Positions 25,237-64,000 of a DNA stretch of 64,000 bases are shown piece by piece. Under the pieces are notes generated by a model. That model was not told the origin of the DNA. It ran no database searches and was given only the letters and a program-made list of their open reading frames with translations. The stretch covers positions 67,084,001 to 67,148,000 of the forward strand of contig JBITNC010000001.1 of NCBI GenBank assembly GCA_050084985.1. The letters run 5' to 3'. The number at the start of each line of letters is the position of its first letter. Position 1 is the stretch's first letter. The DNA is from Nageia nagi. Its lineage: Eukaryota > Plantae > Pinophyta. The position numbers and the translations under genes are program-made.

Positions 25237-28200
25237 TGTCAGGATGGAAACCTTTCCTACCTGCCTATGATCGCTTACACACGATCGAGAAGGGGAAACC
25301 ACCCAACATTTAGATGAGATAACGTAACTTACCTCCTCTTGAAAGAACTGAAACACGAAGGTTTATTCACGTTCTAATTTTTATGTTTTTTTTCACGGAA
25401 AAGGTGTTTTTGTGATGTTTGAAAGTTGTTTTGGTTGTAGAAAAGAAGAATCCAAAAAGATAAAATAAGCAAATAAAACAAAGAAAAATGTGAGAATGAT
25501 CAAATACTTGTTAGATCACAAGGCAAATATCACAACCTTGGTGAGACGCTTTATAATCTAATTTAAAGTGAGTGACTATTGTCTAATGAGCTTTGAATCT
25601 AGAGCATAAAGTGAAACTGATTGTCGGTACTCTACTAATAGGACAAATACAATGAAAGCAACCTAGCGTAAAAAGTGTGCTTTGGAACCAAGTTTGAATG
25701 AAAGCTTCAAATACAATATAGAAAAGAAACAACCTTAGAATACATTTTGTTTAAAAGTGCAATAGGCAAAAGGTGATAAACATAGAGTAATTAAAATATT
25801 TTTTAAAATTTGAACTACTATTTTTTCCTCAAACTCTCAAGTTTTGAAGGAAAGATACAAAAATATTTGAATCATGTAAGAAGAAGGCCACGAAATTAAA
25901 CACATTCACCACTCCCCGTATGACAAATCTCTTGACAAAATAAGTCACCACTTTGTATTACAATGTAAAAGACTTACAAAAAAGTTTCCACAATTTTCTC
26001 CTTTTACAAAAAATTTGAACTTGTTCACAAAATATTCATTCTACATAAAAGTGACCCCATAGGGTCTATTTATAAAATTTCTAGGGTTTCCTAGTGTTAC
26101 CCTAATTCTATAAAGAAAATATTAAAATATTACATAATTTCCTCTTACAACTAGGCTGATTTTTGGTGCTCTCTTGCCCGGTTGATTGATCATGAGAGCA
26201 AGGTTAGTCAAGTTTTGATGCGCAACTTTCCCGACTGGCTGATTTGTTGGTTTGCAGTTTGCATGTGCGATGCAATGATCATCTCGATGTTGCTCCCCAT
26301 GAAGCTTTCAATGTTTTTGAATCCTGTGTTGAGAATTTCCATAACTCCCTCACTCACCAACATATACGTAATCTGCTTGTCAAATTTGACAACATTAATG
26401 TCAAATTCATCTAGCTACACCATACTACCATATCATTACGGTAATAATCAGCTAGATTTCATTTATTATTGTGGCATAGTACTTACTACATCCATCTTGC
26501 TTGATTAGCCATAGATCAAACTGGTAATCTGCTAGTTGTTTCTTCATGTCATCCTTGAAATTTGTTAAGACTTGGATGAAATCCTGAAACTTTGAAATAA
26601 CATATAACAACCAATCATATTGGTAAAAACAATAATGACAACATTCCAATAGTATTGGCATGCCATTAGCCTTTCTTCTTAGATCATGCATCATTTAATA
26701 GCTATTGCCCCAACTGATAATCAATTCATGGATCATGCCTTGTACGACGAACAATCTACCCTCCTCGATAAAGAAATTAGTTATTACTAGGAATAACTCC
26801 TAAATGGTCAACTTTTTATGTTTGACCAATTCTCTTTTAAGCTCCTTGAACTCTATCTTCTATGACGTGTTTTCCTCTATTAGTGCCATAGCATTTGTGA
26901 CCATTACATGTTGCCTACCAAAAGTTCCTATGTTTTTACACAGCTCTTCCCTTGTTTCCACCACTAACGCAAATCCCCCACTGGAAATTTTTTAATTCCT
27001 ACAACAACGATATCAATGATGATGGAGTTATCCTTCATCGAGACATAAGTGGCTATATGTTCAAGTTCAGTATCTGAATTTTGATTGGTTTCAATGACAA
27101 CACAGGCTTCAAATGGGTCGTACGCTCTCAAATTGTTCAAAAATGCCTTCATATCGAAATTGTAACTTGGTTCAAGATTAGCAGTTGTGCCCACTTGTCT
27201 CTCACAATTCCCTTGATCTTAATCCTCCCTCCCTTTCCTTTCATCTTTGTTTTTACCTTCATCCTCCTCATTTCCTTTATCCCCTCTTGATGAGTAAGTT
27301 ATTCCCTTAGATGCTAAGGTCCTTCTTGGAGCAATTGGTGGAGGTTTTCTCTAAGGTGGAGGTGTAAAGGTAGGTCTTGTAGCTTGTACGTGTTCTTCCA
27401 CAGTAGGAGGATCTATGGTCAGTATCTCCTCGACTGATGAATCTGATTCATTATCTGAGATATAAGGTATTTCTAATATTTGCCAATCTTCCAAGGGTTC
27501 TCTTAAGAGTTGTCCTTTTGTCAATCTCATATCCATCCTCGCTTTCACTAGAAGACGGACGAACTGGAGAACTAGGGCCAGAATAACATAATTGTCCATC
27601 TCGAGATGGACCTTTAGGAGGGTCTACCACTAGCTTCATGAAGCATTTGTATGGGTGTGAAGTGTTACCAACCTCTTTAGTGTTCTTTATCTCTTGTGAT
27701 AATCCTTGTATGGTCTGATCAATAGTTTGCTCTGGTTGAACAATGATTGTAACATATTGACGAAACTACCCTTGTTTCAACCTCACATAAGGTGAAATTG
27801 ATGGAGGCACATACAAAATCTAGGGATTCCCTTTAAAGATTATCAAAGGATGTAATCTTGCTATCGCATTCTCCTTTGGCAGACCACTTTTCTACTTCTT
27901 CTTGCTTATTGTCTTTAAAAGCTTTTTTTCGTTGCCAAGTCCTTGTTTACTTCATTGATCTACTTTGTATCATTTACATTTATGTACCTCTCGAGCTTTC
28001 CTAAGGACTGGTGGCACCTTTCATACACCAAAGTTTCTACAAAGTTCATTCAGTATGAATCGATCACTTGCATAAGGAGGAAGTCTGAAAGGTGGCTCAA
28101 TTGACCCGTAGACGCTCATGTATATGGCATCTCATTCTTTTAGATAAAAATCTCCATGCCCTTGAAGACCTTGGTTTGTCACCTCTGATATTATATTCAT

Positions 28201-30969
28201 ATTAACAGTTCCCTTTAGTTGCTTGTATATTCGACACTTAAATCCATTATTCATCATTATGAATTTGTCCCACAATCTTTCTAGCTGAAATCTAGGGTAG
28301 CTCTACCATATTGGCATTTTTGGGTCAAACAGGTACGTAGTATCTGCTATGGCAAATTTTCTATTCTTGCCATCTAGGAGCACAAATACCAAGTAAGAGC
28401 TCATGTAAAACCTTTTGATCTAAACGAGTTGCAACAAATATTCGGTGATGCAATCACTAATCACATTGCTTCATCTGATCTCTTTGCCTCGATTAATCTG
28501 ATGTGTGAAGCCCATGAACTTCATGAAACGTTGGTCATTCTATCGCCTAGTTATTTTAGACAACATGCTAATGATGGTAGAGATTGTCGGATAGAAGTTT
28601 ATTCTCCTTGGTTGGCTTAAGGCCTTTGCCTTGTAGTCTTTGCTTTCATCATCCAATCGATCTCTTATCAAGTTCCTCGGATTTGTCATGTTGTTGAAGA
28701 ATTTAATGGAGTCCACCATACTGAATATGATTCCCTCATTGTCCCAGGCAAAGGCACTCTCTATTACTTCCATCGAGAAATCTAGTATCTTACTACCTTC
28801 ATCGTTGTTGAGGATCCTCTCCTTGCTGTAGTATCTAGCTACTACAAGGTACAATTCTGGGAATGGATCGGTATATGGGATCATACAAGCTTCAAGGATT
28901 CTAACCTGAGCAAGTGTGTTGTTCAGCAAACGTTCATATGGGATCTTGGCCATATTTTCAAATGACTTGACTGGGTAAATGGATGCCCAATTTGTGTATA
29001 TGATATAACAAAGGTCATCTCTTCGATTGCAAGGAAAGCAATCCTCCTTCATTTTTCTAGGGTGATCACGCTAATTTGGCCCATGTATTTGTTTTTTGAA
29101 AGGTTTTGCCAACTTTCAAGCTTGGAAAGATGACGAAGCAAAGTGCGTATTCCAACTTCGTTCGATGGAAGTGAATGATGGAGGTTGCTCTCCTATATGA
29201 GGTCTATCACTTTGGCATTCACTTTAAAGTTTGCATCCTTCAAAATTTTGTATTTTTTGGCCTTGAAAATACATTTTTTTATGTTTTTTAATGTTCTTTT
29301 CGAAAAGCTTGAAAATGACGAAAAGACAGCAGGGTTCAAAATTTGGAAAAAATTTAAAAAGTGGATATGACCTTATGGATGGGTAGAAGATGAGATTCTA
29401 AAATTTTTGAAAAAAATTGAAAAGGTTTGCAGATATCTTTGATCTTGTGAGCAAATTTGAAGTTCTTGATTAAGTCTAGGAGGTTTTGTGAGGACTTTGC
29501 TTAAAAATGGGTGCATGGAGGCTCAAGGAGCAAATGAAAGGCTTAAGGGGGGATTTATAGGGTTTTTGAGCCTTTTGCATTTTCCTTAGTGGTATTTGGA
29601 AACTTTTGGAAAACTTGCTTAATTTTGAAATTTTCAAGATCCAAATGTGTTTGCAATCATGTTTTCCTTGGTCCCAAGCACTTAAACTTGATTTTTGGAA
29701 AAAAAATTCCATTTTGTCATTCTAGGTGCTATTTTTAATGCCAATGGATTTGGAAAACTTTAGAAACTTGTGTCTTACTTTCTGGGGGCTTTACTTGCTC
29801 AAATCCAAAAAAAATTGAGAGCTAATGTGGCTTAGAACCATCATTTCCACTCATTCATGCATTTCTATTTCATTTTTTATGCATTTCAACGTTTCCTCTA
29901 CTATATAGGTGCCAAAATGCACTTCTATGGATTTCTCATAGGCTTTAAAAACTACGCCTAACATTTGAGTTCTTAAGACATGGTCAAAATTGAAAATTTC
30001 AAGTCGTAATTGTGATAGAATTCACCTTGTCTCTTTCAATATGCTCTTAGACTTGAATTCTTATACCATTTACATTTATATATGAGAAATATGCACCATT
30101 TTTTCCTTACTTGGGTCTTCAACACCTTGGAAAAATGCGTTTAGCGACGAGGGTACTGAAACTTTCACTTTCAATCCATTTCGAACTCAATTCGTGCATT
30201 TTATGCCACTCTTGACATTTTCGAGCTCAAAATCGATCAAAACACCCTTTTTGGCACCTCCGATCTCAAACTCTACATTTTCAATAATTTTTGAGCTCAA
30301 ACGATGCAAAAACAACCATTTCTGGCTTTCCAAATTTTCGAGCATTTTTGGCCATTATGGGCTCAACTCATTAGTTTTTGTCATTTCTAAACTTTTGGGA
30401 CACAAATTCTGTAAAAACGCATATTTTTACTAGACTAACCATTTTTGTGCTCAATTATAAAAACACGCTTTTCTAGCATACTTGCCCTTTTCAAGCTTTC
30501 TGAGGTCAACATTGACAAAAACATCCATTTTTGTCATCCTTGTCATTTTTACTGCACCCAAACTAAATTGTGATAAAAATGTGCCTTTTTGTTACCTAGG
30601 GACGTTTATGCTCAAGTTTTGAAAAAATTGCCTTTCTATTGCGCTAGACACTTGTCAACTCAATCTCTACAAAAAGTACCTTTTCCATCATGTTGGTAAC
30701 TTTGTGAAAAACTCCTTTCTTGGTCGTTGTCGTTATCTAAACCTCCATCCTGCTTTATGTTGCTTGAAGCCATGCCATGAATGGCCTTGCTACACACTAA
30801 ACTACCTTGGTGCCTTCAAGATACTTTCATGCACTGCTTCATCACTTGGCCACTTTGATTCTCCATTCTAGACGTCGTCTAGTCATCTTCAGGCAATGTC
30901 GTCTATTGTCTTCAAAAATGTAAGGTCCGCAAAGTGTTGTATCTTAAGGTGTGTTGTGCAGGCACAACA
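25237..30969 (-). mobile_element. Unit A: 5733-bp ORF-X-bearing solo-LTR-like element
   Basis: TGTCAG...ACAACA with perfect TSD AAACT (25232-25236 and 30970-30974), inserted in Copia RT. No terminal direct repeat and no gag/pol motifs. Minus TATAAATA at 26074-26067. Confidence 0.9.
26140..29090 (-). pseudogene. ORF-X copy in unit A (~980 codons, decayed)
   Basis: ACMIPYTDPFPELYLVVARYY..IESAFAW (ORF 28540-29052); VISDCI..FYMSSYLVFVL; GHGDFYL..YMSVYGSIEPPFRLPPYASD; acidic/Pro-rich middle; C-terminal FIEEGRLFVVQGMIHELIISW. Confidence 0.85.
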
Positions 30970-32084: not shown

Positions 32085-32089
32085 ATGAG

Positions 32090-39568: not shown

Positions 39569-39989
39569 CCTAAAACTTAGACTCAAAAATGTAAAAATAC
39601 TCCAACATCTAACAAGAATTGACATAATTACGAATTACAAACAAAAATAGCTCAAGCAACCCAACGTAGGAAAAAGAAAGCAATAACAGATTTTATACTA
39701 TGAAAATAGCACTGCAGATCCAACATCCAAGCAATAAGAGATTATGAGATGAAAAAGCACTCATCCTAAAACATGCACCCCCCACCTTAACAAAAATACT
39801 ACACCTCATTTCAGGCCAATCAAAAGGTGACATGTGGCAATGTCCAAAGTTATAAACAGAAAGTCACCGCTTCTATTTAATCACTTCATTTTGTTTAAGG
39901 CTTTCAACTTGCACCATTTCCAGGCATTGCAAAAGAACTACCAGAAAACAGTGCACCCAAGAGAAATAAGGATTTTTTGAAGACATCCA

Positions 39990-40490
39990 AATCATTCAAA
40001 CTATTGCATCCACTACCGATATTAGTGAAGACTTACAAGATGAAATCATCCACTCCTGTGGTTTGTTCAATGCCACTATGATGCTTTTTCTTGTTGCTTT
40101 TCTTGACTTGTGCTATGAAGTGGCCAAGCACTGCAATTTTGATAAGAGAATTCAAATAGATATTTAGGGGAATGTTATTATTGACTTCATTCCAACATGG
40201 ATTGAAGCTGCTTTTGAGTGGAGAAGATATGGAGATGAATACACTGAAGCTCATTCCGTGCACTTCCATGATAGCACTACCAAGGCTGGGGACTGTATTA
40301 GACAGTAGCTTTATGAAGATTACCAATGCATCTAAGGCCAAAGATCAGTCAGTGCCCTCATAGAAGTGTTCATCCCCACAATATCTAAATTGATCACACT
40401 ATTATCTTGGGTCACAGGAGAAGAGAATGACACCAAGTATAGAAAGGAATACGCTGGCTCCATTGCCATGATTAGCTCCGAGATAAAGAA
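39990..40490 (+). pseudogene. ORF-X copy E, N-terminal half, on the + strand
   Basis: EDLQDEIIHSCGLFNATMMLFLVAFLDLCYEVAKHCNFDKRIQIDI*GNVIIDF..IEAAFEWRRY..FHDS..GQR..ITLLS..DTKYRK is colinear with the unit C copy (EDLPDELIHTCGFLNGTVIPFVVPFPDLCYTVAKRCKFDKRVLLDTEGNVIMDF). Confidence 0.9.
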
Positions 40491-40699
40491 TAGAAAAATC
40501 TTCATGCATGCCAACTTCGAGGAAGTCATTAAATAACACATGCAATCTGTAAATCAGCCACCATGATTCTAGTTATTTTCCAAAATTTTAAAAAATTTTG
40601 TGCTCAGTCAGCTAGGACAGTTGCGCACCAAAACTCGACTAAACCTACTATCATCATCAGTCAACCTGGCAAGTAGAGCACCAAATGTCAACTAACTTA

Positions 40700-43909: not shown

Positions 43910-43922
43910 GGGTGTTGCACCA
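43910..43922 (-). promoter_or_regulatory. Putative primer-binding site (tRNA-Gly-GCC-like)
   Basis: Minus strand reads ...GACA-G-TGGTGCAACACCC, 1 nt after the unit B end. By my recollection of plant tRNA-Gly(GCC), the complement of its 3' end is TGGTGCACCAGCC, an 11/13 match. Confidence 0.6.
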
Positions 43923-46362: not shown

Positions 46363-48912
46363 ATACCAAAACATGCACACGACTTGGAAAAAACAAAGTT
46401 ACTTGTTCTGCCTGAAAGAACAGGTTACCCCAAGCACTCACATCGAATATGGTCCAGGGCACAATAGTCAAAGATGCATGTTCTTACCCGTATACAAAGG
46501 AAATTCACACCATCGGGGTTCTTCTCCACAATGAAGAAAGACTACAAATGTGAACAAAAGAGAAGAAAGATCATGAATGCAAGGACAAACACAAGGATAA
46601 GTGCATAGGAATATGAAGAAAGATGAACTTATGAAGATATCACCAGTGATGCAGTGTCTCGACAAGTCATCTCCTGTTTCATTAAAAAAGTGTATTCACT
46701 ATCAAATCGGTCAACAAATTGCAATCTATGCTCAAATCGCTACCAGGCGAGAGCAAGAAACTGTAGGGTCTTGGTGGAAAACTCAATGGAGCATGGATAA
46801 ATGAAGGGAGCGCATGAATACATAGGCCTAACCAAATGTCCTAGAGACAAGCTATACTCCCCAGAATACATTCACTTGCATGCAAATCATGCAAAGAATA
46901 GCTTAATCCACTTCAACAAATATTCAATATCCAATTTTAGAAGGAAAAACTATTCAGACTTGCATAATCCCACAAATGCGAATCTCCATAGTATTAACTT
47001 TATAGCACTATTCCCAAAAGAAATAAATTTATAATGATATTCAATGATATAAGCAATAACATTCCTTGCCTGATAGCAGTATCCTCAACATGATATTCAA
47101 AGTATAGCAGAGATGTAATGATACAAAATCATAACAAGCATATTATGTAGCGAACTTCTATGCGGTGGAATGCTGAAATCTTAAATATGCAAATTCACAT
47201 ACATGCAAAATCTTCACAAATAAACAATGATATATACAAATGGCACATATGCTATATATTCTTCAGTTTTTCAAATGTAAAGAAATTCCTTCAATTCTTA
47301 CAAATGCAAAACCTTATGCAATCACTGTTATGCAAAAATACCGAATGCCAAAATCCCCTTCTAAATGGCCTCGATGGAGTACATATAGGCCATCACAAGT
47401 GTTACCCTAAAGGCATCAAATCCGATATGGTGCACACACATGCGACACACATACCGATACAAAATTAGATTGTTCACGTAAAACCATGCAAGTGGCACAT
47501 AAAATTGACATAATAGAAATGCCACTATCAAAAATGAATTTAATCTATGCAGAAACAAATCAATATGCAGTAAATGTCTAACATCTAAACTGGCAAGAGA
47601 AAAATCTCATCCCTGCAACAGTCATAGACATAAATGAGTATGACAGATTTGATCTAGCGACAGCAAAACCTTATCCCTACACCAATGAAATAGGGTAACT
47701 GAAGTCTGAGCATAACAACAACTATCATAAAATATACATTTAACAAAAGAAACATAATCGAGACGGAATCTACGAGTGGATTGGATCTATGCCAAATTTG
47801 ATCTCGTATTTGTAGAGTTCAACTCCTCGTTGGTGGACCGTACGAGTCAATGGTCTCCTCCAAGAAAACCATAGTCTTCCACATGCCCTTGGAGTTCATG
47901 CCAACAATTTTGCCATTTTGCCTAAAATAGTTTTATTGGTATGTTTTTCCTTCCGCACCCAAAACATGCACAACACTTGAAGGAAACAATGTTACTTGTT
48001 TTTGCCTTAAAGGACTTATTACCCCAAGCGCTCACATGGAATATGGTCTTGATGGCTCAGGAGTCAGAGATGCATGTTGTTAACCGTATACAAGGGAAAT
48101 ACATGTCGGAGATCCTTTCCTTAATGAGGAAAGACTGCAAATGTGAACAAAATAGATAAATGCAAGGGAATGCGAGGAAAGGAAAAGACCTATGAGAACG
48201 TCATCAGGTATACATGCCTCGGCAGGTCATCTTCAAATTCATTAAGGTCAATACACTCACAATTAAACATTTAGCAAAGTAGCAAATATGCTCCAATCAC
48301 TACCAGACGAGAGAAGGAAGCTATAGGATCTTTATGGAAGACTCATTGGAAACGGTAAAGATGAAATGAGGGCGTACGTGTAGTAATCTAACCGAATGAT
48401 ATAAAGAAAATTTGTAGGCCTCAAAATATATCCACTTGCATGAAAACTATGCAAAGAAGGATCAAACTGTTTCACAAAATAATGAATATGCAGTTCATAG
48501 AAAGAACCATTTAGATATGAATAATCCCTAGAATGATGTTCTTCACAGTATAACATTATGATTTTATTCCTCTAAACGAACACATTCATGATGATTTTCA
48601 ATAACAGAATATGCAGCAATCTTCTATGCAATGGAATGTGAATCTTATGACATTGAAGGCCGAAAATGATTGTACAAATAAACTCAATAGCCTCAATCTC
48701 AAACTGCAAGAACTTCACTATATAATGCTTTCATCATATCCAAAAGTGCAATGCAAAATAGTACAAAGATCATATGCATAAACTCTTCATGTCAAAATCC
48801 CTCATGCAAAAATCTCGTATGTCACAATCCAAATCTAAATGGTCTGAGTGGGGTATAAATAGGCCACTAGAAGTGATGTCTTAAAAGCATCAAATCTGAT
48901 ATGGTTTGCACA

Positions 48913-49001
48913 AAAACAACACACATACCAATACAAAATCAGATATCTTCATACAAAACAACACACATACCAATACAAAATCAGATATCTTCATACAAAA
49001 C
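48913..49001. repeat. Perfect 42-bp tandem duplication
   Basis: AAAACAACACACATACCAATACAAAATCAGATATCTTCATAC x2. Single copy in the homologous C region (~47440-47480). Confidence 0.95.
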
Positions 49002-49299
49002 TATGTAAGTGGCATTCAAAGATGACAAAATATAAATGCCACCGCCGATATGCATCTACTCTACATTTAATCTATGCAACAAAAAATCAGATATGAAATA
49101 AATAGTTTGAAAAGCTCCAGCATCTAAATCGATGGGAGCAAAACTTCATCCCTGCACTGGTCAGAGTCATAAATGAGTCTAAAGATTTGATCTGGTAGTA
49201 GCAAAACCTCATCCCTACACCACTCCAATCAAAATAAAGTAGAGTTTGACATAACCAACATAACCATATGTATGGAACACAGAAAAAAGTACCACAAAT

Positions 49300-51690
49300 G
49301 AAGTCTACTAGTGAATCACATCTAGGCTACATCTAATTTGGCGCGGACAGAGTTCCACTCCTCACACACCCCTGGAGATCATGCCAACAGTGCTACCATC
49401 CTATCAAAAGTATCCTTCAATATTCTTGGATGTAGCCTACATATAGTCTATCCAGATGACCATTTGCCTCTTGTGGATGATGCTCTGCCTTCAGCAAGTT
49501 GAGATCATCAACTTGAAGATGTTCCTGGACTAGGTTCTCGACCTCAACCAATACCGCTTCCTTTTTATTGACAAATTTATCTTCCCCTTGGAACTTGAGT
49601 TGATAAAGATACTCACTCATTTGTTCCTCAACCTCCTTTCACAAGGGGATAGGACAGCGTTGCACATCTCAATTGCATGGTTAAATCAATCATGGTGATA
49701 AGTGAACTCATGAGAGGGGGCAAACTTTTATGGGTTATTAGCGAAAATATGTTGCAAATGGGAAACGTTGGGAAGTTATCTATCCAATGTACTGAGGTGT
49801 GCTGAAATATACGTTTTCAGATCTCTCATCTCAACACCCTCGGCAAGGAGTTTGTAAACCTTTGAAGGCAATCTTTCAACGGCCTCCATCACTTCATTCT
49901 TAAGCTGCTCCTTCATGAATTCTGATCCCTCATGGAAAGAAGTCTGCTTTTGTAACTGTAAAGGAGTGGTACTAATTTTTTGGAACTCTTATATGATCTT
50001 CCTGCTAGCCGTGAGTTCCTTCTTCAACTTCTTCACTTCCCTTTTGGCTTCATAGCCTTCTTGCTCCATGACTGCAACATTTTGGGAGACAATATGTTTT
50101 CTGGTTGTTAACCCTAGCTTAACCTATTCTTGAATGTCTCAATGACGCAATCCTCTGCTCTCCGAGGTGCTTCTCCTTGAGTAAAAATGGTGATGGAAAT
50201 GTCCTTTCGAGAGGTGGAAACGAAAGTGTCCAACCTTTGAATCTTCTCCCCTCTTGAAAGCACTTCTTCCTCATCATCAGAATGCAAGTCTTGGTCTATA
50301 ACACAGGCATCCAAGTTAAGATTTGGATGTTTGGTCATTGGTCGAGGGGAAACCTTTGAACCAGCAATCTTCCTTTGTCAATTTTCTTGACCTCTTTCAC
50401 TAGAGTGGTCTGCACAACAACCATTTCCTTGCCATGATGTTCCTCCTGCCTTATCTTCTTCTCATCACTCATCTTGGTAGAGGACTTATTGAAAGAAGGG
50501 GACTTCTTCCAATGTTCGATAGGAGAGGACTTGTATGCAACCACCTCTCTAGCCGTTTTTTTCCAATTATCCGGACGTCATCATGATAGGTACCAACGTC
50601 ACTATCCAATCATCAGGGATGGTTTCAATCTCGATTTCATCAAGTGCTAAGCACCTCCAGCTATGTCCTCTTGCTCATGCATATTGGCAGCATTGCCAAC
50701 ATCATCATCTTCTTCTTCTTCCTCACTATGACTCTCCGATTCTAAAGCAGAATACTCCACCGTAAGGTTAGGATCTTCAATCTCTTCATCGGAAGAAGAA
50801 GAGGAATGCTCAAAACCAAAGCTAGAACTTTGTTGCAAAGCGGGAACTTTCATCTAGCAAACTCCTTGGATTAAACTTTGCCATGTACCAACAATACACC
50901 AAATAAGAGTTCATATAGAATCTCTTCGAGGAGCCGAAAAGGACAATTGATAACGCAACGCATCACTAATTACCCCAGCCCATTGGATAGGTCTCCCCAA
51001 ACTCAACAATAAAACCTATGCACTTTCTCCAGTACTTAACATCATTTTATTTACTCGTCACTTTGGACAACAGGGTGATCAATTTTGCTGCAATTGTCAG
51101 GAATTCATCTCTCCGTGCATTGATCAACCTCTGCCCTTGAAGGTTTTGAAACTTTTAAGTAAACAAGGTCAAATATAGTCTCCAGGTCGGGCCATGGATT
51201 CAAGAAATTCTTAAGAATGGGTCAAAGGACAATCGTCCCCATAACTCTTCCAGCCAAAGGTTGCTTCAATTCCAGTAGGAGAAAAGTCCTTCATCATGTT
51301 GGCTTATGATCCTGCAGAACCATTGTGCCATAATCGCATTTCTTGGCCACTTCAGTATCCAGGTTTGGGAAAGGTATTGCAAATGGAATTATGGCGGCAT
51401 TGAACAATTCGAATGTGCAGATGTGCTTCTCGAATAAGACCTCTTTGCTGATGGACAATGTGGAGGCTAGGGTCAGAAAAAGATCAAGGCTTACCCAATT
51501 TGTATCACCAACGAGAAATGTGTTTCCCCTTGAATTTGGCTTCAAGTAGCACTGTTTTTGTCTTCTGTTAAAAGTCTATTAGGCTATCCTTCACAAGCCT
51601 TGTCATATGGCTTTTTGTTACATAACTTTCGAACAACTAGCTCGAACTTTCCAGGCTCTCAATGGAGGTGTTTTGACATTTGAAGCCATG
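49300..51690 (-). pseudogene. ORF-X copy in unit D, internally deleted
   Basis: AIIPFAIPFPNLDTEVAKKC; IQWAGVISDAL..FYMNSYLVY; acidic SSSSDEE..EEEEEDDD; tail YLYQLKFQGED..KKEAVLVE. Lacks blocks present in C (~54810-55435 and ~55450-55750). Confidence 0.88.
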
Positions 51691-51949
51691 AAAGGTATTA
51701 CTCACCTCCTCTTTCAACTCCAGACGTCTGACCAATCTAGGCGCACAGTTCTGTATGAGTGCAAAAGCACAACTTGAAAAGTATGCGCTAGGCCTAGGGA
51801 CACTTTAGTCTTTCAAACACAATTCTTCAATCCAGATTTGGTCTCAAGTACTGCCTTGAAGGTATGCGACTAGCTTCAAGGGTAGATATGAAATGCCTTA
51901 GCCAAAAAAGGCTACCTCAATGTCCAACGTCCCTAAATCCTCCTTTCCT

Positions 51950-53070
51950 CCTTGGTCGCACATTTCAAAGTGAGTGCCTAGCCATGCAAGAGAAATGGTG
52001 CGAGAGAGTTCAAAAATGAATATGCAATGTTTCTCAGTGCTTTTCTTTCCTTGGTCACATGTTTTGAAATGAGTATCCAAGCATGCAAGAGAAATGATCC
52101 GACTAAGAAGAGGGGTGATTCTGGAATGATGTTCGAAATACTAAAAAAGGGGGTGATATTTATACGTTTGTATAATTGCCAAGTGTCACTTCGTTATTAA
52201 GCTGTCTAAGGGTCAAATAGAAGGCCCACAACAAGGTCGCATGTTTCTTGGAGTGTGCAAAAGGACGGGTTGAAAATGACGTGACTGGCAAAGGGGAGTG
52301 ACTTGGCCAAATTTCACATTGATTTTAAAGACTTAGCCCCTAGTCACACCGTTTTGGGTGGGTGCCTAAAGCACATGCTTAAATCTTTGAGCCTGAATCC
52401 TGGCATATTTCCTAAAGCCTTAGCCCCTAGTCACATGCCGAGGAAGGAGTGCTTTTTATCCTATTCTCCAACGCTTTGCTCCTTGTCAAATTTGCACACA
52501 GAAATGAAGGGGTCTGACTTCCCTTTTATAGCTCTCTAGGTGGGACACATGTCACCATGTGATAGACATACAAATAGGTACAATGCACAGGCTCCCACTT
52601 GTCAACGCGGCTCAATATTTAGACAATTTTCCTCTCTTCCCTCTAGTCGCATGGTTTTGGACAAGTGCAAAAGGACTCATATAGATCCTTGCGACAGCCT
52701 TTGAGGCTCCAAAATTTCACTTAGTATCCCCCACATTGGTCGCATGCTTTTTGGTGAGTGCTAAAAGGACTCATCTCAAAACATGTGACAATGAGAAAAA
52801 AATACTAAAGGGACTCCATGAAATGCATGCGACAACAATATGCATTGAAAAAACGCAAAGTGTGAGATGATGTCCAACCTAGTCACACCTTTCCTAGAGG
52901 GTGCAAAAGCACTCCCTCAAAAACATGCCACAAGCTGCAAATGGGGTTCCTACAACATGGAGGCCCTCAAGATGCTTTTGAACCTGATGCAAGTGACAAA
53001 AACGAGGAAGGTTGATTGGTCGCATTGCTTGAGAGTGATGCAAAGCACTCATTGAAAAACATGCGACATA
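51950..53070. repeat. Dispersed ~50-bp palindromic units in the U3 of D
   Basis: GTCGCA..TTTT..GAGTGC-AAAA-G(C/G)ACTC..AAAACATGCGAC variants at ~52235, 52341, 52644, 52738, 52880 and 53018. Confidence 0.75.
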
Positions 53071-53219
53071 CTGAAAAATACAAGATTTCGACTTCAACTA
53101 GAATGAATATGCAGTTTAAACACGTTCCTAGGATTAGACCGAAAGATGTGCATCTTCTTTGATAAATTTTTCTGCAATTCCTCTTTGCTTTCATTGGGAG
53201 GTGTTGTGTACACACAAGA

Positions 53220-56200
53220 AGTCCCCGATCTGCTCGGATATAGCCTACATCTGGTATTTCCAGATGACCATTTGTCTCATGGATGATGGATGTTATGCTT
53301 CAGCAAACTAAGGTCATCGAGGTCTATATGTTCTTGTATTAGGATTTGAGCCTCTACCATTAGCGCCTCTTTCTTCCTCACGTTGTTATCCTCCACTTGG
53401 AACTTGAGTTGATCGACATACTTGCTCGCTTGCTCCTTGACCTCTTTCCTCAAGGGGTTTCTTAGTTTCAATACTACATTACACTTTTCAAGTGCATGCT
53501 TCAGCCAGTCGTGATGGTAAGTGAATTGATGGCAGTAGAACAATTTCCTGGGCCTATTAGCGAGAAGTTGTTGCAAATGGGAGACGATGAGGAGGTAGTT
53601 CTCCAACTTGTTGAGGTGTGCTGTGATTTGTGCTTTAAGATCCCGGATTTCCACACCCTCTTCTAGAAGATGATGATAGTTTCCATCATCTCCTTCTTCA
53701 GCTACCCCTTCATCAACTCCCAACCTTCATGGAAAGAGGTCTGCTTCTTTAGATCAAGAGGGGTGGTACTGATATTTTCAAACTCTTTAACGATTTTCCT
53801 GCTATCCTCGAGCTCCCTTTTCAGTCTCTTAACCTCTTTCTTGGATTCATAGCCCTCCGGTTCCACGACTTTCAACATTTTGGGTTACTATGTGCTTTCG
53901 GGCCGTCAGTCCCAACTTCACAGGCATCTTAAACGTCTCTATCATACATTCTTCTACCCTCTGAGGATATTTCTCTTTTGAATAGCAATGACTGATGGAG
54001 ATCTCCTTTCAGGAGGTCGAAACAAATGTGTCAACCATCCTGATCTTCTCACCATCGAAGGCTCCTCTTCTTCATCTTCACAACACAGATCTTGGTCTAT
54101 CTCCTCATCCTAAGTCGTACTCATGCTGAGGGCTCTAAGGCAAGCATCTAAGTCAAGGTCTGGATGTTCGATTGTTGGCTGAGAAGGAAACCTCTGCACC
54201 AACAATAGACCTTTGCTGACCTTCTCAAACTGTTTGGTCGAAGTGGTCAGAATACGGGCCATCTCCTTACCTTGGTGCTTGTCCTGCTTTCTCTACCTCT
54301 TTTGCTCTTCAATCTCCCCTTCGTCTTCTTTATCTACGCCATTGCCAACTATTGATATGCCTTTGTCCTGTGGTTGAAGGGATCTTTCATGGAAGGTTCT
54401 TTTTACAAGGGGTTTCTAGGAAGACAAAGGTGACCGCATTCTTTGCTCGGCAGGAGAGGGTTTTGGAGACACCCACCTCTTTGCCACACTTTACTCCGAC
54501 GATTTGGACCCTGTCATCATCATAGGTCCCAACGTCCACAATCTCATCAGCATCTGGGACAGTATTAATCTTCGTTTCATCAGGTGTGGAAGACCCTATA
54601 CCTACATTATCTTGTTTGTGGTACTATTCGTCAACAACAGCATCATTATCATCTTCTTCTTCTTCACCATGGCTTTCTTCATCACTGCTCTGGTTCCCTG
54701 ACTCTTCATCAGAGCCTTGTACTATACGGTTGGGTTCCCCATCAGTCTCTTCATTGAAAGAAGTGGAATGCTCAGAAGAACTAGAACTTGGTTGCAATGG
54801 GGAAACCTTTTCTCCACATCCAGGATGACGAATGGGTGTGGAAGGAATGTCCTTTGTGGGTGAACCATCGACATAAGCCTCCTCCAACATATCCAAGGGG
54901 ACACTGCGATAGAAAACATCTCTCAAATCGACCATCACCACACTACATTTACTAGGGCTTGATGTGTGCTCCCTTGAAACTCCTCTCTTCCTGATAGGAA
55001 GTAAGGGCACGCTGCCTTGTGGAGGCGCAGCACTAGCAGGCACGTTTTGATCGTGAGACATCTCTATATTTCACCTTAACAATGTGTTGTCTATGAGGTG
55101 GCCTTTCGGCTAGGAGGGGCTCCTTCTTGCTCAAAAGAGCATCTATTCGTGCAATTTCTTCCTCACTCCGCACATTTCGATACTTCTCCACATACCCTAA
55201 CTATTTATGTTGAAAAGCGATTGGCTTATAGAATGAGATGTTGTAGAAATGGGCAATTACACCTCTAGGCTCATAATTTCTATATGTTGCCACTATCAAG
55301 AAGATATTGTAGCAGCTCCTTTTTCATATTGCTGGCGTCAACCCACAACTAGCAAACATAACTTGCAATGGAAATGGGCAAGTTAATGGTTGCATTCTTC
55401 TATATCCACACTCTTTCCTTCATAAACAACAATTGTCTAGCAAACTCCATGAGAATAAGTCTGTCGTAGCATATTTGGGCTGGAGGAGGGGTTGCTCTTT
55501 GGAAGCATATACCCTGATGAATATATGGACCTCATACTGCAGATAGAACTCTCCATGTACGTTAATGGTCTAAATGGCTGCATCAGAAATCCTCTTAAAT
55601 ACGAACTCCCCTTTAATGTCTTTGTAGATAGAATATGCCCACCTATCATTTCTCTAATAGAATTGGGCAAATTTGTTGTGATACAACTACTTCAGGTATA
55701 CATGCCACACAAGAATGCCTTTCTCTCCCAAGTATATTTTATCTGCAAGCTCTTTGGATCTGAGTTTGCCATGTAACAACTGGTACACCAAATAAGAGTT
55801 CATGTCAAACCTCTTCGACGAACCAAGATAAGCTAGCTGGTGGTGTCGGGCATCACTCATCACCTTAGTCCATCTAAAGGCTCTCCGCGAAATGATTACT
55901 ACAATAAACCTTGTGAACTATTTTCTGTACTTGGAATCACTTTTCCTAACCTATAACTCTGGACAACAAAGTGCTCAACATGGCCACTGTAGGTAGGAAT
56001 TCCTCCCTACAAGCATTGACCAATCTTTGGCCCTGGATGTTCTGATACTCTTCAGATACCCATGGGGAATGTAGTCCCCTTGCCTAGTAATGGAATCATG
56101 AAACTCCTTAGAACTTGCTAGTGTGTAGTCATCCTCATATCTTTTCCAACCAAAGGTTGCTTAAATTCCATCATGGAAGAAATCCATGATCACATTACCT

Positions 56201-56598
56201 TCTGTGTCCAAGAGGACTCTCTTATCAAATTTACATCTCTTGGCTACCGTGTAGCACAAGTCAGGAAATGGTACTACGAAAGGTATCACAGTGCCATTCA
56301 AAAATCCACAAGTGTGGATGAGTTCATCTGGCAAGTCCTCCTTACTATTCCAAGCAATGGAGGCCATGGTTTGGATGGGGTAAAGATTTCTGCTATGTGT
56401 ATCTCCAACGATGTTGTATCTCCCCTTGAACTTGGCTTCAGGGAGCTTTGGTCTTTCCCTTATTCGAAATTCTACATTGCTCTCTGTAAAGAGCCTAATC
56501 ATCTGGTCTTTAGTCACATGTCTCTCAAATAGCTGCCCTTGAACTTTCTTGGCCTTTAGTAGGGGTGGCTTCACTTTGGAAGACATTTGAAAAATCAT
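53220..56598 (-). pseudogene. ORF-X copy in unit C (last codons continue at ~47933-47760)
   Basis: ORFs 56161-56598, 54624-55061 and 53277-53723 are pieces of one frameshifted gene. Motifs IPFVVPFPDL, FRWTKVMSD, FDMNSYLVY, HGEFYLQYE..IFIRVYAS; acidic tract; helical tail. Confidence 0.9.
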
Positions 56599-57569
56599 GG
56601 AGAAAAGGATCCAAAAATTCTGGAAGTGCCTAAAGAATACAACAAGGACTAGTCAGAATACCCTGAAAAATGCAACGAGAAAGAATCAAACATGAAGTTT
56701 TGGGTTGCAAACATCTAGGAACATGAAGTTTTGGCGTCTCACAATCAGCCACTGTCAGCTTGGAACCCTGGTCGCACGGTTTCAGATGAGTCCTTTTTCA
56801 CTGCCTGAAAAGCACCCGACTGGGTCCTAGGTCCCTTAGTCAATTTTAGAGCATCATTTCTTCATGTCACACCTGGGCGCATGGATTTAGGTAAGTGGAA
56901 AACCATGTACTGCAAAGCATGCGCCTTAGATTCCAAGGTTCAAAATGGAATGCCTTAGCCAAAATGACTAACTGGATGTACAAACAACACCCTAACTCCT
57001 TATTCCTCCCTGTAAAACCAATTTGAATGAGTGCAAAATAATGTGCTCGAAATGTTGCAATTAAGGATCTGGATGCAAATCTACAATGAAGCAATGAAAA
57101 TGACCAAGGGGTTGCTTAGTACCGACAGCTTTACGGGTTGGCATGTATCACCTCTTGGTTGGCTGAAATTGAGGTCAAATGATGGGGCTAGGGTGAAGGG
57201 TGCACGGTTTCAGGTGTGTGAAAAAGCACCCTTGCTCGTACCCTTTCAAAGCATACGCCTTGAAACATGCACCTGGCCCTCTCTTCTTGAATTCCAACAC
57301 TTGGTCAATTTTATCCCTAGCCTAAGAGGTTTGGGATTGGGCGCTTGGTTTTGGAGGGGTGGGTTTTAATGTTTCCCAGAATGGTGCAACTGGCCTATGG
57401 CACACCTCCCAAGACCAAAAATTTCAAAAAAAAAAAGATTAAAAAAATGTACTTTGAAACAAGGCACATGTTTTAGAGGACGTGCTTTTTCTCCTTAACT
57501 CCACACAGTTCTCCAAAATTAACCTTCCAAATTGAATAACTAAGGCTGACCTTCCTTTAATAGCCTTCA

Positions 57570-58590
57570 CGGATGGGACAGGTGTCATCTTGTGATTGGC
57601 GCCCGAAGGTGTCAAATGCATGTATCCACACTTGTCAACATCCAGGCCCAACACTAAACCAAATTTTATTCCTCGAACTTGGTCACAACATTTAGGCATG
57701 TCTCTCAAAACGTGCAACTAACTGTTTAGGACATTACTTCAAAAAAGGTTAAGTATAGGACCTCTTCTACCTTGGTCGCACTGTTTTGGGGACATGGAAA
57801 AGCATGTCCCTGAAAACATGCAACTAGCCTTTTCACATGCAAAGATAAGTGACTACAAAACTATTCTAGGTATGCGGCTAGCCTTTTTATAGACTTCTCG
57901 GATTGGACAGGCGTCATCTTGTGATAGGTGCCTGAGGGGGTCAAATGCATGTATCCACACTTGTCAACATCCAGGCCCAACACTTAACCAAATTTTATTG
58001 CTCGAACTTGGTCGCACCATTTAAGCATGTCCCTCAAAAAGTGCAACTAGTTGCTTTGGTACTTTACTTCAAAAAGTTAAGTATAGGACCTCTTCTACCT
58101 TGGTCGCACCGTTTTTGGGACATGGAAAAGCATGTCCCTCAAAAAAAGCGACTAGCCTTTTTACATGCAATGATAATCGACTACAAAAATATTCTAAGCA
58201 TGGGACGTCCACAACCATGGTCGCACCGTTTTGGGGATATGCAAAAGCGTGTCCCTTAAAACATGTGGCTAAGCCTATTCATCATGATTTTGCAAAAATA
58301 TGCTACGTATGAAAGCTCTGAGCCCTGGTGGCACCATTTTGGGTACATGCAAAAAGAATGTTCCTCAAAACATGCGACTTGCTGGAAAACATGATTTTTC
58401 TCGATAATTTGAACATAACGATTCCAGCATGAAGATGCAATGAAATAGGGATGGGTTTTTCAACATGAGGAACCTGAAAATGCAATTTTTAAGTGCTAAA
58501 AATGAAGATATGAGTACAAAAATGTAGCATAAAGTTCGTCCAACCGTTTAGGGGATATGCAAAAGTATGTCCCTCAAAACATGAGACTAA
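57570..58590. repeat. ~329-bp direct duplication plus ~50-bp palindromic units in the U3 of C
   Basis: 57571-~57875 resembles 57900-~58205. GGTCGCACCGTTTTGGGGACATG-(G/C)AAAAG-CATGTCCCTCAAAACATGCGAC variants at ~57773, 58009, 58101, 58218, 58327 and 58540. Confidence 0.9.
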
Positions 58591-61500
58591 GAAAAGATGC
58601 GATTTTCTGATTGGATTTCATAATGTTAGTGCAGATTTAACATGTTTCTTGTAGCTAGACCAATGATACGTGCATTCCCATAGACAAAACTTCGACCAAT
58701 CATTTGTGCTTCATTTTATGAGGGTCCTCAAAATTCAAAAATTTTGGGGGCTATTGTGCAAGAACAAGCAAGTATAATGTTCAAGTCAACCTACTTATTA
58801 ATGTCTTCAACTACCAAGTTAGCAACCTTAACTTCACTAGCAATCATTCCTTGACTAGCCACTTCCTTATTTACGTCCCGGATCTCTAAGTTGAATAAGG
58901 TGCGAGATTATCTCAAAGCCCGTGCATTTATAATGATGTTGTGCTTCATTCTTGATGAACAAACAATCTCGGCTGGGACCTCTTTTGTTTCAACTGTGAC
59001 AACGAATTTTATAGCCTTATTCTTTCTCGAGTAGAGCTTGTCCTTGTAGGTGACTTTGCATATAGTAGTAGTGAGAGTATCAATTTGTCAAAGTTCTTCA
59101 TTTTCAACTTCGAAATCTTCTCCTTGCAGAGATAATTTGAACTCAGGTTTCCCAGCACTACAACCATGTTGAAGCGTTTGGGTTTCTTATGTGGATTTCC
59201 ACACGGGACCATCTCTCCTTCTTCAATGATATAGGTATCATGCTCTACTTGTCTTTTCTTCCTACGTACGTCATCATTTTCTCTGTCTTCTTCCTAATTT
59301 CCATCATCTTCCCTAGAAGATGATGCCATTGTCCTAGATCTTGATGTACACCTTCTAAGGAGCGAATTTTGGGATGCTACTCCTACTGCTTGTTGTACAA
59401 TCATATCAATCACGAGATTGTCTTTATCAAGAATCTCTATTGCTTTACCAACTTCTACTCTATTAAAGGCAATGTCTCAATTCACTTCCATGTCGATGTT
59501 AATGATTGCATTAAGATCCATCTCTTCATCAAACTTTGTCGAGATACTCGATCCATAGTTGTCAGAACTTGATGATGATGTACTAGGATTCGAATTCATG
59601 CGAGCGCCACTTCGATTCAAATCTTGTGCGAGATCTATCGTATTCTCCAAGTGTTTGAACAGTTGAGGGATCCAGCATAACATTAGTTTCAATAGTTTCT
59701 CCGGAGATACTATTGGTAGCATATTGCCCTTTTTGTCCTTGCGTCAGGGTCACTGAGGGTGATATTATAGGGATAACATACCCATGGCATGGGGGTACTA
59801 TGACCTGTGCCTCAGCTTTCAGCCTAGCAACTTTTTTGGCTTCTCTTTGTTTCTCTTCTTTTTTCAATTCCCTCTGAATCTGTTGAACCTACAAGCTATC
59901 TTGAATGTTCTTGTACCTTTCTATATTGCTGACGAACATATGTGGATATGATAAACCCCATCTTTTCTCAAAAAACGCATCAATCACTCCATCAAGATCA
60001 TAGTGATCTACAGCTACCTCAGTTTGGAATTGATAAACTGCCAACTCCTACTCTATCAAGTTGATTTGATGCCAAGTAGTGCATCATACATTCCAATGAT
60101 AATTGGTAATTGGTAAATGGTAAGTTGGTGAAGATTTCTTTGTTGATACCTTATCATGTAGCCTAAGAAAGTGTCTAGAAAATTCCATGAGAATGAGTCG
60201 ATCACTTGCATAGCAAGGCAGCTTGTAGGGAGCTTCTTGGAACCATAGATTCTGATATACAAAAATTCTATGTCTTCCATTTAGAAGTCTGTATGTCCCT
60301 TGATACCAGTAGCAACTTCATTTGATATTCTACATAAGTTGCTTTTGACCATGATCTCTTCATATATTTTTCCATCAAAACCCGTATTCATCATCATCCA
60401 ATTACCGTCATTCCATCTGTTGTGAGAATAGAACCATAGGAAACTCTCCCATACTAGGTGCGTGGGGTCAAATAAGAATTCAATGTCAACAATGGAAGTT
60501 ACCCTCTCCCTACTGTGAAAGAGTAGGAACACTAGGTAAGAGTTCATGTAGATTTCTTTGCCGGCCTGCACGGTTTTCAACTATTGGGCCAAACAATCGC
60601 TAATCACTCTACTCCACCTTATGCCTTTACCGCTACTAATTATATCTATAAACCTTGCAAACTCTGGCCGGAATTTGGTATTGTCTTTTGTTCGATCAAT
60701 ATGGAGTGCAGTCATATAATATTGGAAACTATAGGATAATTTTTTTCTCTTAAATTTCACCAAGGTTTTCCCAATGATGTGCTTACAATCATTAGCTAAC
60801 CAAGCTCTAACCAAATCACTGCATTATTTTTATGCAAGAGTCCATGTCTTCTATTGTCGTAATGCTTTCCCAGTTCATAGCACATCTCTAGGAAGGGTGA
60901 GGCAAATGACACCATCGATATCATTACTAGTAAGGATGATCTCCATGTGTTGTTTACTAGTAAAGCAAGATCCATACATTGTATCTTTGTCAATGTTTTG
61001 ATTGGGTCCAAGAAGTTACAATCCGTATATCCACCTTCATTCAGACGATCAATGATATTTGCTATGGGCACCACCGGCTCTGTAGTATGTTCAAGGGTAA
61101 TGTGGCTTTCCATCATGAGCCTTTTTTGCTTCCAGGCTTTGATCATGTTAAGTGAACAACACATTGTTAGGAAAGCCCTAGCAACTATCTGACACTTTTA
61201 GGCAGAAAGAAAATATTGGAAATTTTCATAAGTGTGCCATCATTGAAAGTGAGTGAAATTGGAATGATACCAAGGTAACTAACTCTAAGGGGGAAGTGCC
61301 TTGGGAAGACTTTGGGAAAATTTGGGATTTTTGGAATATTTTTCGACATTTTTGCTCACAAATGGAGCTTGCTGGAAAACAATAGACTTATCATAATTTT
61401 GCCAATGAAAGAGAGGGCAAATTAGGAAAAATGGTCAAATGATGTTGGAATTGGTTTCTAACACCTTAGGTAGATGGGGAATGAAGGGAGAAGATGTTTT

Positions 61501-61962
61501 GGATTTTGAAACGGTCACTTCCGACTTGAAAAACACATTTTAGTGCACTTTGGAAATTTTCATGGATTTTTTCAAAAAAAAAAATTGAAAAACTTGGATT
61601 TTAGGCACTCTGATCTTGGATATTGGAACTTTTTTGTGTTTTTTTGGCTGAAATTAAAAATGATCCCAAGGGTATTGGGTATCCAAATATGTAATCCAAT
61701 TTGAAATCTGAAAAAATTATTTCTCACGGGTTTGGGATCTTGGAAATTGAAAAACTTGAAAAAATTGGATATAAGTGTGAGAGTGCCCTAGGATCTTTGA
61801 GTTTGGTGATAAAAAGGTGTTTGGCTACGGTCTCAAGACACCAAATATTGCTCCAAGGCTGAAAGTTGGGTTTTCCTCCTTTCTTAGCTCTCCAATTCTT
61901 CAAAAACATGGCAATATGTAGATGCAAATAATAATTGTGAGCAATATGGAGGGGTGACGGTG

Positions 61963-62000
61963 TATTTATAGACTTTAGACTCAATATATGCCACATGTCA
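61963..62000 (-). promoter_or_regulatory. Putative internal ORF-X promoter of unit B
   Basis: Minus TGACATGTGGCA (62000-61989), then CTATAAATA (61971-61963) and TCACCCC. Same arrangement at 52188-52157 (-) and 39828-39856 (+). Confidence 0.6.
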
Positions 62001-62444
62001 ACACCACATTAACCAAAAAAGATGACTTTTTGCATTTTTCATGTTTGCTGAAAATTTAAAAACTTGCCAAATTTGCGCCTATTAATAGGAGGAGGAGGTT
62101 TGGACAAATTTGCATGCTCTTAGAGGCAAAGTTGAAGGATTATGCATGCTCCTTCACATTTGGATTCTAAAACTTGGTATTTTTGAAGAAATATCCATAT
62201 ATTTAATCTTTTTTGCTTTTCAATCATTTTGGAGGATAAATCCATGGTTTGGAGGAGTTTTTCTAGTCCAAATTGCACACTTGGAAGACCAAAATCATGT
62301 AGAATCACAAAACCTAGCTCATAAAGGCCAGAAATTGCAATTTTCGCAAGTTTTGGGCATCAAAAAGCTTGGCATAGGTTTTACAAGGCATACAGAGTTT
62401 TTTCGAAGTTTCAAAAGTTAGATATCTTGGAAAACCAATGACTA

Positions 62445-63300
62445 AGATTTAGGGGGGCAATTATTGCTCATTTTCAATAATTTCAAGAGCAAAGTTGCTC
62501 AATTTGCCATTTTCCACCCTACCTATCTCTCCAATTTTGATTTTAGAAATTTTGAAAATTTGGTAAATTTTTTAAGCTCTCTCATTGGCTGCCCACTTTT
62601 TTCATGATTTTGAAGGAGTAGATAAAATTTTTTTCAAAAAGTTATAACATAAAATTTCTGCAAAATTGGATTTCACATGCTTCTATGATAAAAAATTTCA
62701 AAACTTACAAAAAATTTCAAAACTTGGAAAACCAGGACCTATGATTTTAGGGGCAAATTTTGATCATTTTCACTAGTTCCAAGAGCAAAGTTGCTCAATT
62801 TAGGATTTCCCATTTTATGTCTTTCTCTAATTTTGATTTTACAAATATTTGAATTTTTGGAAAATTTTCGAGTCCTGTCATTGGCTGTCCAGTTTTTCAT
62901 GATTTTAGAGAAGTAGATCTTAGTTTCTTGAAACACGCAAAACATCAATCTTGAGTGGAATTACATATTACAACCCATGAAGCTCAAAAAAATCATTTTT
63001 GACCAATTTTAGGCCTCCATAATGCTAGGCGCAGGTTTGACAAGTTTTGGAATGTTCAAGCCAAGTTTGAAAAGTTCTAAAACTTGGCAAATCCCCCTAG
63101 CAAATTGGAGGGAAAATATTGAGTTTTTTCAAAATTTCCAAGAGCGAAGTACTTATTTTATCATTTGGCATCACACCTTTCTCTTAGATTTTCTATTTGA
63201 CAACTTTGGAATTTTGGGAAAATTCGAAGCATTCCTATTGGCTGCCCTTAACTCCTCTATTATCATTTTTCTGTTTTTTCCACTTTTGAGGGAGCAAAGT
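62445..63300. repeat. Degenerate ~300-bp direct repeats in the U3 of B
   Basis: GATTT(T)AGGGG..CAAGAGCAAAGTTGCTCAATTT..CATTGGCTG..TTTTTCATGATTTT at ~62445 and ~62742; partial copy at ~63100-63250. Confidence 0.8.
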
Positions 63301-64000
63301 TTGTCCAAATTACAAACTTGAAAAACCAATTTGATGTACAATTGCATTCTCCATGCTCTCAAGCTCAAAAATTTCGAAGTGTACTCTCCATAATGCTAGA
63401 CACAAGTTTTCCCTAGTTTGGAATATTTAGGAAAAATTCAAAAACATGGCAAATCCACCTTAGGAATGTTTTCCCTATTTTATCATTTGTCATCACACCT
63501 TTCTCTTAGATTTTCATTCCAACTTCATTCAAAAAAACACATTTTTCTAGGTCTATGCTCAACTCCATACATCTTGGAAGCATCACTTCTATGTATTCAT
63601 CTCGTCCCCTAGGGAGCTCCTCCGACCGGAACTAAAAGATTCGAAGCCAAAATGAGCCTGAAACCGGATTCTTCATCACCTTGTGTCATCAAACTCTCTG
63701 TTATCAAGAATCTACATTGCCTATCCAACACTGGAAGGAAGCATTTGCTTGCTAATTTGATCACTTTGGACAAACACTAGTTTGGTGCCTGGATGCCTTC
63801 AATACTCTAGTGATCCTACGTTGAATAAACTGCTTCATATTATCCATGATAACATTCCTTCAAAATGTTGTAGAACTATCTCTTGGACCATCTCACTTGT
63901 GAGCCTTGTCCATTCTAGTTCGCTATATTTGCAAAACCTAGCTCCCCAAAATGCTGCATCTTGGGGTGTGTTGTCCAGACACAACAACAAATGGGCATGC

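Follow-up and report, generated by a model that had tools for sequence, protein, structure and literature searches.

Our study of a 64,000-nt stretch of Nageia nagi DNA (contig JBITNC010000001.1, positions 67,084,001 to 67,148,000 of the forward strand), here called the window, revealed a group of related units in which a repeat region, a long open reading frame (ORF-X), a TATA box and a tail follow one another in the same order. The reading that we put forward, and which we regard as evenly balanced between right and wrong, is that these units are solo long terminal repeats (LTRs) of gymnosperm gypsy elements, 5–7 kb in length, that encode an anti-silencing factor of the VANC/plant mobile domain (PMD) fold for the array in their own unit.

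Units of the window and their layout

The window, taken at its full length, has a G+C content of 36 % and is crowded with decayed copia, long interspersed nuclear element (LINE) and gypsy remnants. A profile search found six copies of ORF-X in it (A to F). Copies E and F and a 5' piece, G, were added to the four units, A to D, of the initial annotation, whose claim that these share one minus-strand layout holds. The units and their parts are as follows.

25237..30969, minus strand: unit A, 5733 bp, complete, with TG...CA ends and an AAACT duplication
26130..29090, minus strand: ORF-X of A, some 990 codons long and disrupted by frameshifts and stop codons
26062..26077, minus strand: TATA box of A, at a distance of 837 bp from the 3' end of the unit
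29100..30969, minus strand: upstream region of A, repeat-rich with AT-rich motifs, its repeats at chance level
44344..63986, minus strand: unit B, split by the insertion of C, with 6478 bp net in the part seen
about 61150–58775 and 45605–44990, minus strand: ORF-X of B, split by C
46366..58770, minus strand: unit C, its ends revised, some 7.1 kb net and inside the ORF-X of B
about 56590–53220 and 47933–47790, minus strand: ORF-X of C, split by D
56620..58770, minus strand: upstream array of C, with four palindromes of about 50 bp near 58130, 57800, 57470 and 56900
47934..53219, minus strand: unit D, 5286 bp, inside the ORF-X of C, with a TATA box 928 bp before its end
39850..41419, plus strand: unit E, with an N-terminal piece of ORF-X (39982–40485), a deletion, then an A-like tail and 3' end
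9020..10016, minus strand: ORF-X copy F, very decayed
41420..42424, minus strand: piece G, which is likely to be the opening kb of a further unit

Relatives were taken from one metagenome scan, which gave seven of its 24 pattern matches as the loci used here (given L numbers); these match A, B, C, D and E at 64–78 % DNA identity and are less decayed relatives of the window units.

Unit A has exact TG...CA ends and, as had been claimed, a perfect AAACT on either side, a target-site duplication of 5/5 letters (chance of a 5/5 match, 0.0014). The ends claimed for D stand as decayed forms of family ends that are intact in L005, and its duplication amounts to 3/5 letters, which is not above chance alone (0.13). 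Those of C were moved, as the family motif fits a 5' end at about 58770 better than one at 58753 and family homology runs only to about 46366, the start of an AT-rich array; no duplication was demonstrable for C, or for the related unit Y1 described below. The end claimed for B at 43924 was wrong. B-type homology with L002 stops at window position 44343, and the true 3' end of B, about 535 bp further on in the B-type L002, was not found in the window. Alignment of D to both parts of C showed it to be nested in the ORF-X of C, and the ORF-X of D is without the middle of its N-terminal domain. No 5' end was found for E and no unit ends for F. Piece G is weakly similar to B and A (scores of 188–211 against shuffle maxima of 143–159); it was considered as a second LTR of B and ruled out, since it resembles B no more closely than it does A or L001.

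The layout is common to units A to D and recurs in families with only 30–40 % likeness in protein. A TATA box directly behind ORF-X was aligned in 9/9 units compared, with the stop of ORF-X only about 60–180 bp before it in A and L002, and the distance from TATA box to 3' end was 837–1030 bp in the five units measured, with no long ORF in between. A 5' motif and a 3'-terminal block are common across families (8 ends aligned). Tails of 0.83–0.92 kb had been reported initially for A, B and D; the TATA box lies 837 bp before the end in A and 928 bp in D. The tails diverge far less than the synonymous sites of ORF-X and are thus constrained. Units A, E and L007 have kept a word resembling a splice donor, some 90 bases short of the 3' end and directed outwards from the unit (window 25237–25345 and 41305–41419; L007 4065–4179).

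No internal direct repeat was found in A, B, C, D or Y1 (scores of 26–37, against shuffle maxima of 34.5–50.5 and 635 for a control LTR pair), and neither this test nor Pfam contradicted the initial statement that the units carry no terminal direct repeats and no gag or pol. The first 400 bases of the unit are not repeated behind ORF-X in 5/5 units tested; a hidden short LTR at that place was therefore ruled out, and the case that the initial annotation had named as refuting, of short LTRs with an internal ORF-X, found no support. Related 'Y' units in L005 and L002 share the family ends and promoter, among them one that has no long ORF and is inserted in the tail of an ORF-X unit:

L005 13745–16326, minus strand: Y1, 2.6 kb, with family ends, palindrome array, TATA box and tail

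ORF-X as a selected gene

Every ORF-X in the window is broken, the longest open frame being 176 codons, and the full span was obtained by comparison with relatives. The frame of A matches the protein P0001 (758 aa) at 65 % identity, and its N-terminal domain is 65 % identical to P0001 and its cluster mate P0003 (838 aa). When 1.84 billion representatives were searched with P0001, 186 relatives were found at E 0.001. A distant clade, tied to the ORF-X family by hmmsearch and blastp, has intact members of 1010–1018 aa and clusters of up to 62 members. The only named relatives come from Taxus chinensis and Picea glauca, and no relatives were found in scans of viral contigs and prokaryotic genomes, whose single pattern match, L008, was a chance occurrence within an unrelated ORF. 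A fragment of the family, P0249, is annotated in Picea glauca as a hypothetical gene with a mitochondrial-style name. Pairs of relatives that lie on equally long contigs and were taken as possible LTR pairs proved to be halves of split ORFs.

Selection on ORF-X, which had been proposed initially for testing, was examined through codon comparisons. The ratio of non-synonymous to synonymous differences (pN/pS) was 0.19–0.46 in 18/18 pairwise codon comparisons against open frames of the loci, alike in the N- and C-terminal parts, and 0.60–1.02 in nine non-coding control frames. This signature of purifying selection indicates that ORF-X was a functional gene of about 990–1170 codons while the families spread.

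Predicted fold of the ORF-X product

Pfam, applied to the ORF-X regions, gave no match for the ORF-X frames of A–D, for 18 proteins or for 105 alignment members. The ESM Atlas gave no usable match, and a sequence search of the PDB found no solved relative. Two AlphaFold models were examined, and both showed a confident N-terminal domain (predicted template-modelling score 0.78 in one of them) followed by a long helix and a low-confidence acidic region. VANC21 bound to DNA (PDB 9LNK) ranked first for both models in a wide structural search. The first fold search placed it at Z 7.2 (230 residues aligned, root-mean-square deviation 4.4), the other rows being single helices; the second placed it at Z 6.6 (226 aligned, deviation 4.6) with the next row at 3.1, and VANC21 was the sole chain with Z of 5 or more among 48,161 solved chains. 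The lead is a sensible one because VANC shares its fold with MAIN/PMD (PMC13547354, bioRxiv 2024.09.27.615353) and PMD-A is carried by gypsy elements (PMC5418596); a PMD-type extra ORF is reported for 57 % of Ogre (PMC6317226). On these models, the N-terminal domain of ORF-X is predicted to have the VANC/plant mobile domain fold.

Arrays and palindromes upstream of ORF-X

Palindromes of about 50 bp lie upstream of ORF-X in C (four), Y1 (six), Y2 (four) and Y3 (two), where shuffled sequences gave 0–1. Repeated 9-mers exceeded the shuffle maximum in 7/10 upstream regions (narrowly in D and L003). The 9-mer arrays are clear in C, Y1 and Y2, present in B and L001 and at chance level in A, G and Y3; L001, unlike unit A, has clear tandem duplications in its upstream region. 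The repeated 9-mers of the A/B group differ from those of the C/D/Y group. VANC proteins are reported to bind short motifs that the elements encoding them carry in tandemly amplified form (PMC5735166), and the arrays found here are candidate binding sites of ORF-X.

Are the units LTRs?

The units show what is expected of solo LTRs, namely TG...CA ends, a 5-bp duplication (in A), no internal repeat and no match to gag or pol, and their sequence places a putative RNA polymerase II promoter (TATA) upstream of a tail resembling R-U5. We know of no other class that gives such ends without its own enzyme. The LTR reading is favoured because the conserved promoter faces a non-coding tail and the unit end, as in LTRs, and on this anatomy we consider that the units are probably LTRs.

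This was set against a census of 17 unit ends, comprising both ends of A, C, D and Y1 (8), the 3' end only of E, L002, the C/D-type unit of L005, Y4 and L007 (5), and the 5' end only of B, G, Y2 and Y3 (4), with just 14 bases flanking B. The flanks were inspected visually for a primer-binding site (PBS) and polypurine tract (PPT) and were also scanned with six PBS motifs. In L007, a TGG lies two bases past the unit end and is followed by sequence that, by eye, resembles the protease region of another element. Past the 5' end of B (63987–64000, plus strand), five bases precede a TGG, of which and beyond only nine bases are visible; this TGG could be a PBS if the LTR ran opposite to ORF-X.

Several results weigh against the proposed reading. 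A PBS or PPT was found at 0/17 unit ends, and neither a direct pair around gag-pol nor a linked pol was found in the window and seven loci, although the same loci do show these features for the unrelated family Z described below. Under the LTR model, a census of 0/17 has a probability of 0.08 at a solo:intact ratio of 5.5:1 and of 0.22 at 10:1, but of under 1e-6 at the Pinaceae-like ratio of 0.25:1. Palindrome counts in units of A and B type do not exceed those of shuffled sequences, and D retains one. Two of the nine control frames also have pN/pS intervals just below 1. No Pfam PMD or DUF1985 profile matched the 18 proteins or the 105 alignment members, and Foldseek against the PDB and viral models gave no ORF-X match at E 0.001. 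The fold match itself is modest and stops at about residue 315; at Z under 8 and 7–9 % identity, VANC21 is a lead and not proof.

The LTR reading, and with it the initial idea that a full element would hold two copies of the gene, calls for some five or more solo LTRs per intact element (5:1). Pinaceae are reported to have 1 solo per 3.7–7.5 complete elements (PMC5751070), and ratios of 5.5:1 in T. wallichiana and about 4:1 in Ginkgo have been given (PMC9364684). Very long, old LTRs should favour solos; such a link is noted for angiosperms, not for P. abies (PMC5751070).

The strongest competitor, which we nevertheless think somewhat unlikely, is that the units are stand-alone LTR-derived modules without an internal region, mobilized in trans by a partner retrotransposon, with ORF-X as their sole gene. 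None of the four units visible from end to end (A, C, D and L005-Y1) has an internal region, nine half-seen units have no PBS or PPT, the ORF-less 2.6-kb Y1 keeps the same ends and promoter, and the units are often nested in each other. However, without two LTRs, a PBS and a PPT there is no known regeneration of both ends by reverse transcription in the account of PMC7264820, the outward TATA box and non-coding tail suit a downstream gag-pol, and high solo ratios are known outside Pinaceae (PMC9364684). A deletion origin, in which Tat/Athila-like elements with LTRs of about 1 kb left the 5' LTR start fused to the 3' internal region, with repeats and extra ORF, and the 3' LTR, finds support in Tat/Retand, where tandem arrays and a predicted DNA-binding extra ORF lie between pol and the 3' LTR (PMC11963269), and L002 has a short purine run and TGTTG directly after the ORF-X stop. 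Yet the 400-base unit start, absent behind ORF-X in 5/5 units, largely refutes it, the stop of ORF-X lies close to the TATA box in A and L002 and the layout is the same in the divergent families, making this origin quite improbable.

Another explanation accepts the units as LTRs and makes ORF-X a different PMD-fold regulator of chromatin or transcription, or a structural or RNA-handling accessory protein. A shared fold does not reveal what a protein does, the PMD proteins of hosts work in silencing as well as in opposition to Polycomb (PMC5418596; bioRxiv 2024.09.27.615353), and over half of ORF-X, its acidic linker and predicted long helices, lies outside the fold match; family-specific arrays directly upstream of the gene nevertheless parallel the VANC system (PMC5735166), and we consider such other functions unlikely. 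Very improbable, in our judgement, is the reading of the units as VANDAL-like or Ginger-like DNA transposons with a VANC-like gene. TG...CA ends are not exclusive to LTRs, which counts in its favour, but Mutator-like elements make longer duplications, which counts against it. VANC is known from Mutator-like VANDAL elements (PMC5735166), yet with Pfam neither a transposase nor an integrase domain was found in any unit's ORF-X frames, and no MuDR transposase in those of A–D, each unit has one ORF, and long terminal inverted repeats were not found in the unit alignments.

Proposed mechanism and relation to known systems

If the units are gene-bearing LTRs, the integrase of the parent gypsy element would insert the element, giving the 5-bp duplication, and recombination between its two giant LTRs would leave a single LTR. 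ORF-X would lie within the U3 region, and TATA-like boxes were also seen by eye upstream of ORF-X in B, C, D and E. The ORF-X product would bind the array in its own unit and hold the LTR promoter open against silencing. The U3 boundary may have shifted upstream, taking in the region between pol and the 3' LTR; such a shift is suggested because the order of repeats, extra ORF and promoter matches that region in Tat/Retand elements. A bolder proposal, which we offer tentatively and hold to be doubtful, is that an anti-silencing gene of the VANC/PMD fold was brought, together with the palindromic array that it targets, into a U3 of 5–8 kb in this lineage, creating a self-protecting module that outlasts the loss of gag-pol in very many copies or even travels alone.

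Coding sequence in U3 is found in MMTV sag and HIV nef, which belong to vertebrate retroviruses and are much shorter ORFs for unrelated proteins. In published descriptions of plant LTR elements, extra ORFs lie in the internal region (PMC7264820, PMC6317226). Like ORF-X, VANC21 (PDB 9LNK), its best and only clear fold match, is transposon-encoded, and VANDAL elements, like the units described here, have tandem motif arrays in their non-coding part (PMC5735166). VANC, however, is reported to be restricted to dicots and to DNA transposons that have a transposase (PMC13547354), whereas the ORF-X units are from a gymnosperm and have TG...CA ends, a 5-bp duplication and no transposase match, and their protein is 7–9 % identical to VANC21. 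PMD-A (PF10536) of Ogre/Tat is likewise a gypsy-borne accessory ORF (PMC5418596, PMC6317226) and fold kin through VANC and MAIN (PMC13547354, bioRxiv 2024.09.27.615353), but its descriptions come from angiosperms and place it outside the LTR, whereas ORF-X has no Pfam PMD match and lies within a TG...CA unit. Retand/Tat elements resemble the units in having arrays beside a predicted DNA-binding ORF (TRP28), upstream of the 3' promoter; in them the ORF is antisense and internal and the LTRs measure 315–1194 bp (PMC11963269), whereas ORF-X has the same sense as the TATA box and lies inside a unit of 5–7 kb. Solo LTRs of Ogre-type elements (to about 5 kb) and Retrosat2 (3.2 kb) share the TG...CA ends, 5-bp duplication and a promoter near the 3' part (PMC6317226, PMC3485330), but they are described without a gene, and ORF0 of Retrosat2 precedes gag-pol (PMC3485330).

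Our literature comparison found no plant LTR with such a gene and no VANC-like system in a gymnosperm or a retrotransposon; Repbase, subscription journals and the per-element table of PMC6317226 (Additional file 1), which possibly holds gymnosperm LTR lengths, were outside its scope. Dicot VANDAL DNA transposons are the known source of sequence-specific anti-silencing, and the proposed reading, if true, would extend it to a retrotransposon and beyond the flowering plants. As an LTR, the unit would be gene-bearing and above the upper range of about 5 kb given for plant LTRs (PMC6317226), and default LTR finders would miss repeats of such size. A gymnosperm protein family that is widespread but unannotated, with a likely VANC/PMD fold and a place beside candidate binding arrays, makes both the anti-silencing and the extra-ORF role testable together, and bears on retrotransposon expansion in heavily methylated giant genomes and on the origins of PMD and VANC.

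Chromovirus family Z and the supposed end of B

43620..44343, minus strand: Z LTR in the tail of B, from an unrelated chromovirus-type gypsy element

The initial annotation had closed B at 43924 and placed a PBS and a gag remnant beyond it. From 44343 down to at least 43620 the window matches Z; this homology is unbroken through 43620–44126, with no break at 43924 (314/405 columns with L004), and because this position falls within the Z LTR, the end, the PBS and the gag remnant are not real; the supposed remnant is a 101-codon frame without a Pfam match. The B-type tail is 1030 bp in L002, and the 0.9 kb measured for B was coincidental. What survives of the initial proposal of a U3-encoded accessory gene is a conserved, selected gene before a TATA box in a TG...CA unit; its sole direct proof of an LTR, the PBS and gag, was mistaken. 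By its sequence, Z is an ordinary chromovirus: in L005 it occurs as two direct copies of 1.5 kb (91 %) along with a PBS of tRNA-Met type, and in L003 its LTR is preceded by integrase and a chromodomain.

Z was seen inside or beside ORF-X units in the window and in 3/7 loci, twice inside ORF-X (window 43620–44343; L003 5315–6560; L004 232–649; L005 3965–10014 and about 20480–21477). The association may reflect a targeting preference or mere abundance, in loci that were chosen by ORF-X. The Z element at L005 5467–8516, with two 1.5-kb LTRs, a PBS, a purine tract and 3 kb inside, is likely a non-autonomous derivative; its interior holds two open frames (264 and 165 aa) without a Pfam match.

Other features of the window

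24429–24785: copia reverse transcriptase remnant in the left flank of A (RVT_2, E 2e-34)
45918..46367, no strand assigned: 16-bp AT-rich tandem array of 28 copies, replacing the last 20 or so bases of the family end of C

The 16-bp array belongs to an AT-rich insert that spans 45606–46367 at the 3' end of C. Rfam gave no match anywhere in the window, and a six-frame Pfam search of positions 42425–43620, between G and the matched part of Z, found nothing. Behind a copia remnant, tandem arrays with units of 59 bp and some 123 bp lie at 1825–2071 and 2594–3378. A LINE-like remnant on the plus strand (17400–22500), read by eye, contains endonuclease- and reverse transcriptase-like fragments.

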